Shown here in pieces: positions 1-9,000 of a stretch of 49,241 nucleotides of DNA. The position numbers were made by a program. Each line of letters starts with the position of its first letter. The first letter of the stretch is position 1. The stretch is taken from IMG/VR virus record IMGVR_UViG_2721755711_000006; one strand, given 5' to 3'. Source of the stretch: a virus. Taxonomy: Duplodnaviria; Heunggongvirae; Uroviricota; Caudoviricetes.

Positions 1-3000
1 ATGACGAAGAAAAAAGCACATAAACCTGGTTCAGCGACCATCGCGCTTAACAAGCGCGCCCGTCACGAATACTTTATCGAAGAAGAGTTCGAAGCGGGAC
101 TTGCCCTGCAAGGCTGGGAGGTTAAATCCCTGCGCGCAGGAAAAGCCAATATCAGCGACAGCTACGTCCTTCTGCGTGACGGAGAGGCATTTCTGTTTGG
201 CGCTAACATCACGCCAATGGCCGTGGCCTCCACGCATGTGGTGTGCGATCCTACCCGTACCCGCAAGTTACTTCTCAACCAGCGCGAACTGGACTCATTG
301 TACGGTCGCGTCAATCGAGAAGGCTATACCGTAGTGGCGCTCTCCCTGTACTGGAAAAATGCCTGGTGCAAAGTGAAAATCGGCGTCGCCAAAGGTAAAA
401 AACAGCACGATAAACGTTCAGATATCAAAGAACGCGAATGGCAGGTGGATAAAGCACGTATCATGAAAAACGCCCACCGTTAAACCTGCACTCCAATTAT
501 TGACCAGTTCCTCACCGCGCCTCCCTCTCCGGCGGCGCGAATGAACATCTTATTGGCTATCACATCCGACACAAATGTTGCCATCCCATTGCTTAATCGA
601 ATAAAAATCAGGCTACATGGGTGCTAAATCTTTAACGATAACGCCATTGAGGCTGGTCATGGCGCTCATAAATCTGGTATACTTACCTTTACACATTGGG
701 GCTGATTCTGGATTCGACGGGATTTGCGAAACCCAAGGTGCATGCCGAGGGGCGGTTGGCCTCGTAAAAAGCCGCAAAAAATAGTCGCAAACGACGAAAA
801 CTACGCTTTAGCAGCTTAATAACCTGCTTAGAGCCCTCTCTCCCTAGCCTCCGCTCTTAGGACGGGGATCAAGAGAGGTCAAACCCAAAAGAGATCGCGT
901 GGAAGCCCTGCCTGGGGTTGAAGCGTTAAAACTTAATCAGGCTAGTTTGTTAGTGGCGTGTCCGTCCGCAGCTGGCAAGCGAATGTAAAGACTGACTAAG
1001 CATGTAGTACCGAGGATGTAGGAATTTCGGACGCGGGTTCAACTCCCGCCAGCTCCACCACTTTTGATAGGACCACAACCGGACAGAGACTATAAAAACA
1101 GTCACTTACGGACACTGACCAGACAGCGTTCTGACCAGAAAAAGACAAAAATATACACACAGAATGCACGTGCATTTCAAAAAAGCCTCTGATTATGAAG
1201 TCAGAGGCTTTTCTGTTTGTAACTAAGGGTAACAATTCAGCATGATGCATACTTACCAATTACGTAACGTCAAACGCTCGAACTGAAGCCAAATCCTCCA
1301 GATTATTCAGTTCTTCCTTCATCTCTCGCTGACGGAAATAAATTTCATCATTGCGATCAACCTGCGCATGAAGCATTGCCGTAAGTAGTTCATCCAGTTG
1401 TTGCATTGACAACTTTACCTGCTGATTAACAGCATCACCCCACGTCATGACGTCCCGTGCTGTGTCGGATTTCGATGCCATCACCACCGGATAAAGACGG
1501 GCCATCGAATCCGGTCCCCCATTCCAGCTATGGCCGTTCCATTCAAAAATGAATGGCTGCGCTTCCTGTTCTGTACGCCATGCTTCAATTTCCCGGCGTT
1601 TGGCTGCTTTTGCTGCTTCCAGCATCTCTGACGTGACGGTGAACGGCGTTATTTCTCCCCATCTCCCGCTTTGCAGCTCCTGCCAGACTCGCTGCCCTGT
1701 CTCTGCTGTATCCGTGGCAGTTGCCGTATACGGAACCGGTTCATCCATGCCATCAAACAACACCCCACAGTCAATCGCGCCATTTTCAAGATAACGCGCA
1801 TTTTCGATGCGTTTTATTTCCATAAAACACCTACGCAATACGTATGAACAAACCAATCATGACACTGGCTGACCCGGCAGACCCGAGCCCGTCACCTGAC
1901 AGTGCCCGATATGACCCCGGCATACCACCACCAGAACCCCGCACATATACGGAAACGCTGCCGTTATATCCAACCCCGCTACCGGTCGTGCCGTGACACA
2001 TAAATTCAACCGCGCTCAGGCGTGACCCCGGATAGCTGTAACCGCGTTTTATCCGGCGGTCGGTGTCTGCGTCTCCCTTACCGTTATAAGCCGCCAGTAC
2101 AAGACTGCCTGCACCGTACCAGCCGTCCGTGGTACCGGGAGCAATACCGGACAGAAGAGAGATAATGTCCTGTGAGGTCATCTTCAGATTTTCCCAGCCA
2201 GTCAGATAACCATTACCTGTTGTCCAGTAGCGGTTGTAATAAACATCGCCATTAATACCGTAGAAAATAATGGCCTTTGCTGTATATCGCGGCTCCGGTG
2301 GATTATTGCGTGCCTCAACCCACCGGATGCGGACCATCCCGTTAAACAACACACCTCCGGATATGATTTTACTGTCACCCTCAACAAAATATTCACCCGG
2401 CGTCGCATTCCTTACCCAGGACAGAAAATCATCCTCTGTGTTAAAACGGATACGCTCTGCGGGCAAAAAAATATGCCCAAAACCAAATGCACCGGGTGTC
2501 GCCAGACGGCCTTCAGTCCGGTCACGAATGTCGCTCTGTGGCGTCATTGTGGCTGCGCTTTTCAGTCCAAGATTATCACGGGATTCCTGCTGAGCCTCTT
2601 CACCTTCATCAGCCAGCTCTGATAAACGATTCGCCGTTTTCAGTGTCGCAGATAACGCAGTATCAATATCCTCCCTGACATGCTCTGCATCAGATGCGGC
2701 CTTTTTCGCGGCTTCAGCATCCTGCCTGACCTCTGCGGCGGTATCCTCAACCTGTGAGACCAGAGTTTCGGCCTGTTGTTTACCCTCCGCAACCGCGTCG
2801 GCGTTCTGCTGAACACCTTCCACCAGTTTTTTTACATCTTCTTTTGCCCGGGCGGCAGCGTCTGCATGTTGCCCTGCCTGTCGTTCGCTTTCTGTTGCAG
2901 TTTCCGCGCTCTGCTGCGCCTGCGCCACCATTTCCTCAAATCGTTTGACGACATCCGGCTTCAGGTCACCTTCATCGATGGCTGTCAGAAAATCATTCAG

Positions 3001-6000: not shown

Positions 6001-9000
6001 AAAACCGTCAACCTGCAGGATGACACTGTACTGACCGTACTCCACATCCATGCTGTAACGCCCGGCTTCATCCGGATTCTCTGAGCCCACCGTGTTCACC
6101 ACCACCGTGGTGCTGTTACGTCTGGCTTTCAGCTGAATGGTGCAGTTCTGTACCGGTTTTCCTGTGCCGTCTTTCAGGACTCCTGAAATCTTTACTGCCA
6201 TATTCACCCCACAAAAAAGCCCACCGGTTCCGGCGGGCTGTCATAACACTGTGTTACCTGGCTAATCAGAATTTATAACCGACCCCAACGATGAATCCGT
6301 CAGTACGCCAGTCGCCACTGCCGGAGCCTTCATAAGCAATATCAACAACGACGGACGCTGCCGGATTAATCTGTATACCTGCACTCCACGCCACTGAGGT
6401 ATGCCGCATTGCTCTTTCGTCCCTGGCGGTGGTCGTCTCTTTCATATACCCGGGAGTGATTTCCGTCTTACGGTAATCCCTTGTACTGCCGGACCACCGA
6501 CTGTGAGCCACTCCGGCCATGGCGTACGCACTGACCTGCTTACTGATTTGTAAAACCGGTCCGGCCATCACGCTCACATAACGTCCACGCAGGCTCTCAT
6601 AGTGAAACGTATCCTCCCCGGTCATCACTGTGCTGCTCTTTTTCGACGCGGCGAACCCCAGGGAAGCCATCACCCCCACACTGTCCGTCAGTTCATAACG
6701 GTACTTCACGTTAATCCCTTTCAGATGACTCACACCGGTATCCCCGCCCGACAACGACGGCAATGTACCCGGTTTCACCTGAAAATAGCCCACCGTAAAC
6801 GTACCATGTCCACCTTCCGCACGGGCCGGAGTGACTGTCACCGCAAGTGCGGCAAAGACAGCAACGGCAATACACACATTACGCATCGTTCACCTCTCAC
6901 TGTTTTATAATAAAACGCCCGTTCCCGGACGAACCTCTGTAACACACTCAGACCACGCTGATGCCCAGCGTCTGTTTCTTAATCACCATAACCTGCACAT
7001 CGCTGGCAAACGTATCCGGCGGAATATCTGCCGAATGCCGTGTGGACGTAAGCGTGAACGTCAGGATCACGTTTCCCCGACCCGCTGGCATGTCAACAAT
7101 ACGGGAGAACACCTGTACCGCCTCGTTCGCCGCGCCATCATAAATCACCGCACCGTTCATCAGTACTTTCAGATAACACATCGAATACGTTGTCCTGCCG
7201 CTGACAGTACGCTTACTTCCGCGAAACGTCAGCGGAAGCACCACTATCTGGCGATCAAAAGGATGGTCATCGGTCACGGTGACAGTACGGGTACCTGACG
7301 GCCAGTCCACACTGCTTTCACGCTGGCGCGGAAAAGCCGCACTCGCCGCCTTTACAATGTCCCCGACGATTTTTTCCGCCCTCAGCGTACCGTTTATCGT
7401 ACAGTTTTCAGCTATCGTCACATTACTGAGCGTCCCGGCGTTCGCATTCACGTTACCACTGATATCGGCATTTTTCGCCGTCAGCCGGCCATCAGGTGTC
7501 AGGGAAAATGCCGGAGGATTACCGCCGCTGGTAATGGTGGGGGCCGTCAGGCGTTTCAGGAACACGTCATTCATGAATATCTGATTGCCCTGCGCCACAA
7601 ACATCGGCGTTTCATTCCCGTTTGCCGGGTCAATAAACGCGATACGATTGGCGGCAACCAGAAACTGGCTCAGTTTGCCTTCCTCTGTATCCTCCATGCT
7701 GAGGCCAAGTCCCGCGACATAATGTCTGCCGTCTCTGGTCTGCTCAATTTTGACGCCCCACATGGCATTCCATTTATCACTGGCGTCTTTCCACTCTTTC
7801 GAAAACTCATCCAGTCTGCTGGCGTTATCCTCCGTCAGGTCGACTTTTTCCAGCAACTCCTTGCCGAGATGAGATTCGGTTATCTTGCCTTTGAAAAAAT
7901 CCAGGTAACCTTCCGCATCATCGCTCGCCCGACCGACAGCCTCCACGAATGCCGATTTGCCAACGGTGTTCACACTGCGAACGTAAAAATAATAATCATG
8001 GCCCGGCCTGATATTGATACTGGCGGCTATCCAGTACAGCGCCGTACCAAGATAACGCGCGCTGGTTTCAACCTGCCTGATATCGGTAATCTGCTTTTCC
8101 GAGAACCAGAACTCAAACTGCACTGTCGGGTCATATACAGCCAGTTTCGGGACCGCCGTTATCTGAAAATAGCCCGGCGTCAGCTCAATCTGTGACGGTG
8201 CAGCCGGTGCGGCAATCCGGAAAGAGACCGACGCCGCATCGCCCTGTTGCCCCCACGCATTTACCGCCCGGACCGTCAGCGTGTAATGCCCCAGCGCCAG
8301 TTGCCTGAAGCGGTATGTGGTTTCCGTCGTCCTGGCCGTGCTGACCAGCCGCTCACTGCCGTCATCCGCTGCCACGGTCAGGCGAAGCAGGAAGCTCACG
8401 CCCTTCACCACCTTCGGCGTGTCCCAGCGCGCCAGCACCTGATACTCCCCGCTGTCTGCGGTGACTTCGGCGGTCAGGTGCTGCACCGCTGGCGGCGTGA
8501 CACCATTCACCGTGCCGCTCTGGTCGCCGTCAAAGTGCGCCCCGTTATCCACGATGGCCTCTTTTTCCGGTACATGCTGCACGGCGGTGATGGCATACGT
8601 GCCGTCGTCGTTCTCACGGATACTCACGCAGCGGAACAGGCGCTGGCGCAACGTCGGCAGCTTCAGCCCCCATACGCTGTATTCAGCAACGCCGTCAGGA
8701 ACACGGCTCACTTTCACCTTCACGCCGTCGGTGACGGACTGAACCTCCACGCTGACCGGACTCCCCTGCCCGTCAACCAGGCTTATCAGCGTGGTGCCGG
8801 AAGATGGCAGCGTGATTTCACGGTCGAGCGTCAGCGTCCGGGTCTGGCTGTTTACCGCCAGCACGCGCCCGCCGGTGCTGATACCGGCATAGTCATCATC
8901 ACAGATTTCAATGACATCGCCCGGCACATGGCGAAGCCCTTCTGCGCCCACGCTGAAGTCCACGGTCTGCGTTTCCAGCAGTTCTGTTTTAATCAGCCAC

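Follow-up and report, generated by a model that had tools for sequence, protein, structure and literature searches.

The stretch examined here, IMG/VR virus record IMGVR_UViG_2721755711_000006, is 49,241 nucleotides (nt) long (hereafter the window) and contains a lambda-like prophage integrated at ssrA, with two tail-fibre cassettes at the end adjoining that gene. The late genes are on the minus strand, rightward from ssrA in the window. Read along that strand, they end with J (6948-10346), lom (6266-6886), stf (3877-6207), tfa (3296-3877), a second fibre gene, here called fib2 (1831-3255), and a gene for a 187-amino-acid (aa) protein of the DUF4376 family (1260-1823); a terminator and the attachment (att) core within ssrA (698-1060, plus strand) follow. 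The first-pass annotation had described two tandem cassettes, each of a fibre gene plus an assembly chaperone. All four open reading frames (ORFs) are present on the minus strand at its coordinates and form two co-oriented pairs, but the distal helper proved to be a DUF4376 protein and not Tfa-like.

The proximal pair is the primary side tail fibre cassette. The product of stf has 776 aa from a GTG start codon, matches PF08400, Phage_fiber_2 and Collar, and carries a gp37-like tip, while tfa encodes the 193-aa Stf assembly protein (PF02413, Caudo_TAP, E 1.7e-43; phrog_105). The pair shares 98.3-98.4% nt identity with lambda stf-tfa (J02459, 19644-22535). Like its Ur-lambda counterpart, stf is uninterrupted. 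Homology with lambda stops at window position 3315, 19 nt ahead of the tfa stop codon, so that the replacement of the lambda b region starts there. The 40-nt gap between tfa and fib2 holds a terminator-like GC hairpin followed by a T-run (3274-3289, minus strand).

The N-terminal 93 aa of Stf match the StfN collar (PDB 9e7m), and the anchor is of the lambda type. Ur-lambda Stf binds OmpC, and four trimers of its N-terminal 91-94 residues encircle the gpV-gpM junction as a 12-subunit collar (PMC12617516). The prophage encodes lambda-family homologues of gpV (16517-17275) and gpM (12408-12740), both on the minus strand, and a lambda-family U was also found. V and M are 57% and 56% identical to those of lambda, respectively. 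Among the named contact residues of Ur-lambda Stf, gpV E63 and gpM W6 are kept here, and gpM K2 and R80 are replaced by E and T. If Stf mounts on this tail, a lambda-type anchor is paired with divergent V and M, and collar docking may therefore tolerate divergence.

The second fibre gene encodes 474 aa from an ATG at position 3255. PF08400 is the only Pfam family matched (E 1.1e-52, residues 1-133), and residues 1-93 match the solved StfN collar domain (PDB 9e7m, E 7e-17). Three parts can be distinguished: a PF08400 anchor (about residues 1-95), a coiled-coil shaft (about 100-225) and a receptor-binding region (about 260-474), the model of which resembles phage receptor-binding proteins. The two fibres had been annotated as related at their N-termini and different in their C-terminal parts, and BLASTP alignment bore this out, with 37% identity over the N-terminal 191 aa (E 9e-30) and no similarity between the C-terminal parts. 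The fib2 anchor is 44% identical to the anchor of its own Stf over 95 aa and lies outside the lambda subtype. Recent tandem duplication of stf was considered and rejected, as the 5' ends of the two genes share no exact word longer than 14 nt and one 32-nt stretch at 84% identity. The locus was also examined for a Gin/Cin-type invertible segment, the absence of which had been noted at first pass. A tblastn search of the whole window for a Pin-like resolvase gave a best E of 0.58, no inverted-repeat crossover site flanks the fibre genes, and both cassettes lie on the minus strand; an invertible segment is thus ruled out.

The DUF4376 gene starts 7 nt past the fib2 stop codon, and its product matches PF14301 (E 1.5e-15, residues 70-176). 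With that match, no match to PF02413 and an empty BLASTP comparison with tfa, a Tfa/Caudo_TAP identity for this helper was dropped. An hhalign comparison of the Tfa and DUF4376 family alignments returned a probability of 0.25%, a weak test because the alignments are shallow and of low diversity. Both proteins carry the motif (F/Y)xxWNGxxW at a predicted beta-hairpin (YQKWNGTAW in Tfa, FEWNGHSW in the DUF4376 protein). The resemblance is not significant; it is the sole region aligned by hhalign, and it could reflect convergence or very remote homology. NCBIfam supplied no names for Stf, Tfa, the fib2 product or the 187-aa protein.

The AlphaFold2 (AF2) model of the DUF4376 protein (predicted local distance difference test score, pLDDT, 92) has predicted strands at residues 3-11, 17-23 and 30-34, helices at 65-88 and 140-173, and beta-hairpins at 91-102 and 125-139. 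This predicted fold agrees with the published description of such chaperones (PMC10579305). A Foldseek search of BFVD with the model returned DUF4376 proteins, and a sequence search of the PDB found nothing meaningful. Elsewhere, experiments support a chaperone function for DUF4376 proteins encoded downstream of fibre genes: gp27 of Alteromonas phage V22 is essential for active fibres, gp9 of Alteromonas phage A5 is a related 'cap', and the H-fibre of the Campylobacter CJIE1 prophage requires the DUF4376 gene downstream of it (PMC7289586, PMC10579305, PMC7882524).

In all 30+ loci examined, the chaperone gene lies directly 3' of a fibre gene. Comparison of 15 loci revealed that chaperone residues 1-40 track the fibre C-terminus: they are 95-98% identical where the fibre tips are at least 95% identical and only 55-70% identical where the tips are about 33% identical, whereas core residues 65-139 hold at 76-80% identity throughout. 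Such co-variation is the expected look of a cognate fibre-chaperone pair. Judged from these comparisons, the 187-aa protein is a putative DUF4376 chaperone of the V22 gp27 type, cognate to fib2.

The position of the distal pair relative to the att site was then considered. The att core occupies the last approximately 23 nt of ssrA (about 1038-1060), where phage-side homology with two aligned loci, L004 and L001, begins. The phage-side att arm (1061-1259) is conserved in the same alignment, and the record of Cronobacter phage phiES15 ends in a stretch with 87% identity to 1061-1174. A bidirectional intrinsic-terminator hairpin at 1181-1212, conserved in L001 and L004, closes the late operon. 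The distal pair thus lies between tfa and att, 200 bp from the att core. The window holds no second ssrA 3' end, hence no ssrA fragment separates the two cassettes. Downstream of ssrA, no terminator-like element precedes the hairpin at 1181-1212, and for this reason the prophage may supply the 3' terminator of the transfer-messenger RNA gene.

Comparison with related prophages located the distal cassette at a second ssrA prophage and in a lambdoid prophage (L035) at the tRNA-Ser/hya site. The latter is 99% identical to window positions 4098-1315, a block that comprises the stf 3' end, tfa, fib2 and the DUF4376 gene, and encodes exactly the same fib2 protein. Since this 99% identical block sits at a different att site, the fibre block moves with the phage. 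Homology with L035 breaks in the last approximately 55 nt of the DUF4376 gene (1260-1315), and the L035 chaperone has 191 aa and a different C-terminus; by this alignment, the 3' end of the chaperone gene evidently contains a breakpoint for the exchange of att/int modules. A prophage of E. coli 2013C-3264, also at ssrA, has an identical layout but a different Stf and Lom. Altogether, three intact copies of fib2 were found in lambdoid prophages (the window, L001 and L035), at two att sites.

The orthologues of the distal pair are of equal length, and the 2013C-3264 orthologues served for estimating the ratio of nonsynonymous to synonymous substitution rates (dN/dS). In fib2, with 17 nonsynonymous substitutions among 39 in total, the ratio is 0.24 (binomial test against neutrality, p 2e-5), and the chaperone gene has a ratio of 0.165; tfa and stf, at 0.13 and 0.24, respectively, are comparable. 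By these estimates, the distal pair is intact and appears to be under purifying selection.

The distribution of the module was surveyed in 5,426 complete E. coli genomes. The anchor family of fib2 was found in approximately 156 of them, about 3%. Typing of the first 95 residues of 120 homologues resolved four discrete anchor subtypes, phiP27-type (44), P2-type (28), Mu/com-mom (23) and a second Mu-like type (11), each at least about 90% conserved within itself. The anchor subtype agrees with the tail module in every context examined, and a receptor-binding region 85-99% identical to that of fib2 occurs on all four subtypes. A 91% nt match in the Rac-SA53-like locus L037 had raised the idea that the anchor is independent of tail type; it was dropped, as the N-terminal 95 aa of that locus type as phiP27 subtype.

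The module closes the late operon in every context sampled. In phiP27 the order is L54 (fibre), L55 (Tfa), L56 (PF08400 fibre), L57 (DUF4376) and attR, and Rac-SA53, vB_Apl-pPE4 and relatives, including one in E. coli W, likewise end their late operons with it. In P2-like prophages it directly follows gpD. In Mu-like prophages (L012-L024, e.g. L012:5660-9943), found at 10 host insertion sites, it lies between a U-like Caudo_TAP gene and com/mom, and a 14-nt overlap joins its fibre gene to the Caudo_TAP gene just before it, as would suit joint expression with the tail genes. In Mu, this position is taken by the invertible G segment and gin; no invertase was found at the module position in the Mu-like prophages. 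The Mu-like arrangement looks like an alternative to the inversion switch, with 'both fibres at once'. In some lambdoid prophages, the sole side-fibre cassette joins a lambda-type anchor to a DUF4376 helper. The double-fibre arrangement is already in deposited phage genomes, where it stands without comment, and full-text literature searches on DUF4376 and PF08400 recovered no study of the fibre plus DUF4376 module in coliphages.

The anchor of fib2 is of the P2-like subtype, with 88-92% identity over 95 aa to five P2-like loci, and this subtype was present in all eight P2-like prophage contexts sampled. In addition, a P2-like prophage at tRNA-Ser/hya has a cassette after gpD with 92.6% nt identity to this one, from fib2 codon 11 to about 10 codons short of the chaperone stop. 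On these two grounds, a contractile-tailed prophage was the source of the module. In this historical sense the cassette evidently does derive from a different phage, and the locus is an instance of ordinary, well-formed phage gene mosaicism.

Considered together, we put at about even the chance that the distal pair is a working second fibre module, intact and portable, that ends the late operon. Under this proposal, recombination near the fib2 start codon brought the module in from a P2-like contractile-tailed prophage, in the place of the lambda b region, and the lambdoid genome has carried it between att sites since then. Transcription would begin at a Q-dependent late promoter, and polymerase antiterminated as by lambda Q would pass the hairpins that follow J, lom and tfa to reach the distal pair. 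The fib2 product would be a short trimeric fibre made up of a collar-type anchor, a coiled-coil shaft and a C-terminal receptor-binding domain. Trimerisation and capping of the fibre tip would be the task of the chaperone, whose N-terminal beta-strands would be matched to that tip and whose helical and beta-hairpin body would serve as a generic trimerisation/cap part, as proposed for V22 gp27 and A5 gp9. We infer that the fibre would attach to this virion by its collar domain, either sharing the 12-subunit Stf collar, which would yield mixed-fibre virions, or using a separate docking site. Its most likely function would be a second adsorption specificity beside the OmpC-type Stf. The first-pass annotation had suggested an extra fibre that broadens host range; host-range broadening by fib2 is plausible, and is made less certain by the mismatch of anchor and tail.

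Several observations weigh against a working second fibre. The anchor is P2-like and only 44% identical to the lambda-type anchor that docks at the gpV-gpM junction. The lambdoid junction, consisting of the tfa 3' end, the hairpin and the fib2 5' end, was found in 6 of the 5,426 genomes, where it is 98-99% conserved, and in five of the six an IS630 fragment and a YadA-like (Eib-like) gene now stand where most of fib2 and the chaperone gene would be, so the module is dispensable. The replaced loci (L005:4340-7126, L048:5139-7878 and L049:5091-7877) retain roughly the first 45 codons of fib2 along with the DUF4376 gene's 3' end, and the replacement apparently traces to one ancestral event. Moreover, the signal of purifying selection could partly reflect recombination with functional alleles in myovirus prophages, and literature searches retrieved no virion proteomics, imaging or adsorption data for the module in these phages. 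As a separate observation on the Eib-like genes, P-Eib phages carry a DUF4376 homologue (34% identity) upstream of their eib genes, namely 'orf-191'.

The anchor subtype and the rarity of the junction would both be accounted for if the pair were a passenger, captured from a P2-like prophage and expressed or expressible, with a P2-subtype anchor that cannot dock on a lambda-type tail. The pair would then add nothing to the virion and persist only through recent acquisition or continuing recombination with functional alleles. The agreement of anchor subtype with tail type in every myovirus context sampled and the nt identity of the cassette to its P2-like counterpart speak for this explanation, as does the loss of the fibre from most of the junction genomes. 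It has to contend with three intact lambdoid copies at two att sites, with full-length ORFs and dN/dS (omega) values of 0.17-0.24. Furthermore, the link between anchor and tail could stem from genetic linkage to the upstream backbone instead of docking specificity, and the lambda-type anchor of the same prophage already goes with V and M that are about 56% identical to those of lambda. We regard a passenger as possible, although on balance we doubt it.

A second alternative, that fib2 binds elsewhere on the virion and gives the phage two independent fibre sets, draws on a match of residues 1-204 to the collar spike protein of the Vibrio myophage XM1 (PDB 7kjk, E 7.6e-5). In XM1, six trimers of gp40 bind the head-tail neck via a 100-residue N-terminal domain (PMC10457771), which is PF08400-like. 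The module also occurs mainly in contractile-tailed prophages, in which sheath or baseplate covers a lambda-like tube/tip junction. The match to XM1 gp40 is, however, weak, and lambda-like phages have neck proteins of a different sequence from those of P2-like phages. Attachment at a separate site such as the neck seems quite unlikely.

It is highly improbable that the pair is a lysogenic-conversion moron, whose expression from the prophage would serve the lysogen outside the virion, for example as an adhesin (on the surface or released) or by masking the receptor. The position beside att is typical of morons, the pair is bracketed by terminator-like hairpins, and a YadA-like gene takes the same spot in related prophages. 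Nonetheless, a consensus scan upstream of fib2, a method of low sensitivity, detected no promoter-like site, the pair lacks an export signal, the domain make-up is that of a virion fibre and its chaperone, and in Mu-like prophages the fibre gene overlaps the tail gene upstream. Finally, the suggestion that the distal cassette is a remnant of a neighbouring prophage, or its fibre ORF a pseudogene in flanking non-phage DNA, can hardly be maintained: the cassette is at the extreme prophage edge by ssrA, with an anchor subtype not native to lambdoid phages, but ssrA has a single 3' copy with the att core past the cassette, another att site harbours the entire block with its tfa-fib2 junction, and the ORFs are intact and constrained.

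To return to the working second fibre, a broader form of the proposal can be put forward tentatively, and we think it rather improbable. The PF08400 fibre and DUF4376 pair would be an undescribed, self-contained accessory-fibre module of temperate enterobacterial phages, its anchor working across tail types and possibly bound at the neck or collar like XM1 gp40. The second fibre set would be co-expressed constitutively, would replace the G segment in Mu-like phages, and would let the present phage adsorb via two receptors.

If fib2 mounts, the collar-type anchor is movable between contractile and non-contractile tails, a property of use in equipping engineered lambda-based particles with additional specificities. 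The presence of second-fibre modules in about 3% of complete E. coli genomes would also be explained, and the inversion switches of Mu and P1 would have a 'both fibres at once' counterpart. If it does not mount, the locus is a clean case of tail-fibre mosaicism, with breakpoints mapped near the fib2 start codon and in the last approximately 55 nt of the chaperone gene.

The remainder of the window was also annotated. smpB (1-483) is at the window start, and int, which begins at 48042 and continues beyond 49241, marks the far end of the prophage from ssrA. Nu1, A, holin and endolysin genes are present, and the Q antiterminator gene is at 33244-33627. A phage-borne tRNA-Gly(TCC) gene (29764-29836, minus strand) lies between Q and the lysis genes and is adjoined by an N6/N4 DNA methylase gene (30055-31101). 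A 731-aa ORF (37362-39557, minus strand) carries Ash and Rha (phage regulatory) domains in its C-terminal third, and its N-terminal approximately 450 residues have no Pfam match. Near the int end are plus-strand genes for an SPFH/Band 7 family protein (44805-45632) and a DUF5406 protein (47095-47472), both of which may be accessory cargo. An IS110-family transposase ORF (PF01548 and PF02371; 45802-46821, plus strand) is inserted in the early-left arm close to int.

Among the closest known systems is Ur-lambda Stf/Tfa (PDB 9E7M/9MGH; PMC12617516), with which the distal pair shares the PF08400 collar domain, the coiled-coil shaft and a place in the late operon downstream of J and lom. The fib2 product differs in being shorter (474 versus 774 aa), in lacking Phage_fiber_2, Collar and the gp37-like tip, in having a DUF4376 rather than a Caudo_TAP helper, and in an anchor of P2 subtype that is 44% identical. 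The helper itself resembles the chaperones V22 gp27, A5 gp9 and that of CJIE1 in its PF14301 match, in the location of its gene directly downstream of a fibre gene and in predicted architecture; in contrast to them, it comes from an enterobacterial temperate phage and has another client fibre.

The double arrangement also occurs in phiP27 L54-L57, Rac-SA53 tail1-tail4 and vB_Apl-pPE4 gp67-70, in all of which a fibre gene, a Caudo_TAP gene, a PF08400 fibre gene and a DUF4376 gene lead to att, and the chaperones of which are 73-75% identical to the one here. Those cassettes belong to baseplate-bearing, contractile-type tail modules and have the phiP27-subtype anchor, whereas the present one combines a lambda-like backbone with a P2-subtype anchor. 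The Mu G/Gin, P1 C/Cin and e14 P/Pin systems also place two alternative fibre specificities with their chaperones in one phage. Unlike those invertible segments, the locus described here has neither an invertase nor crossover repeats, and its genes are complete and co-oriented and would be co-expressed. Several receptor-binding proteins per virion are likewise found in DT57C (LtfA/LtfB), K1-5, phi92, CBA120 and the rV5-like phages, and rV5-like phages such as Av-05 carry a related fibre/DUF4376 pair (33% and 37% identity). The multi-receptor phages are virulent and use dedicated adaptor proteins, whereas the arrangement at ssrA would require a collar-type anchor.

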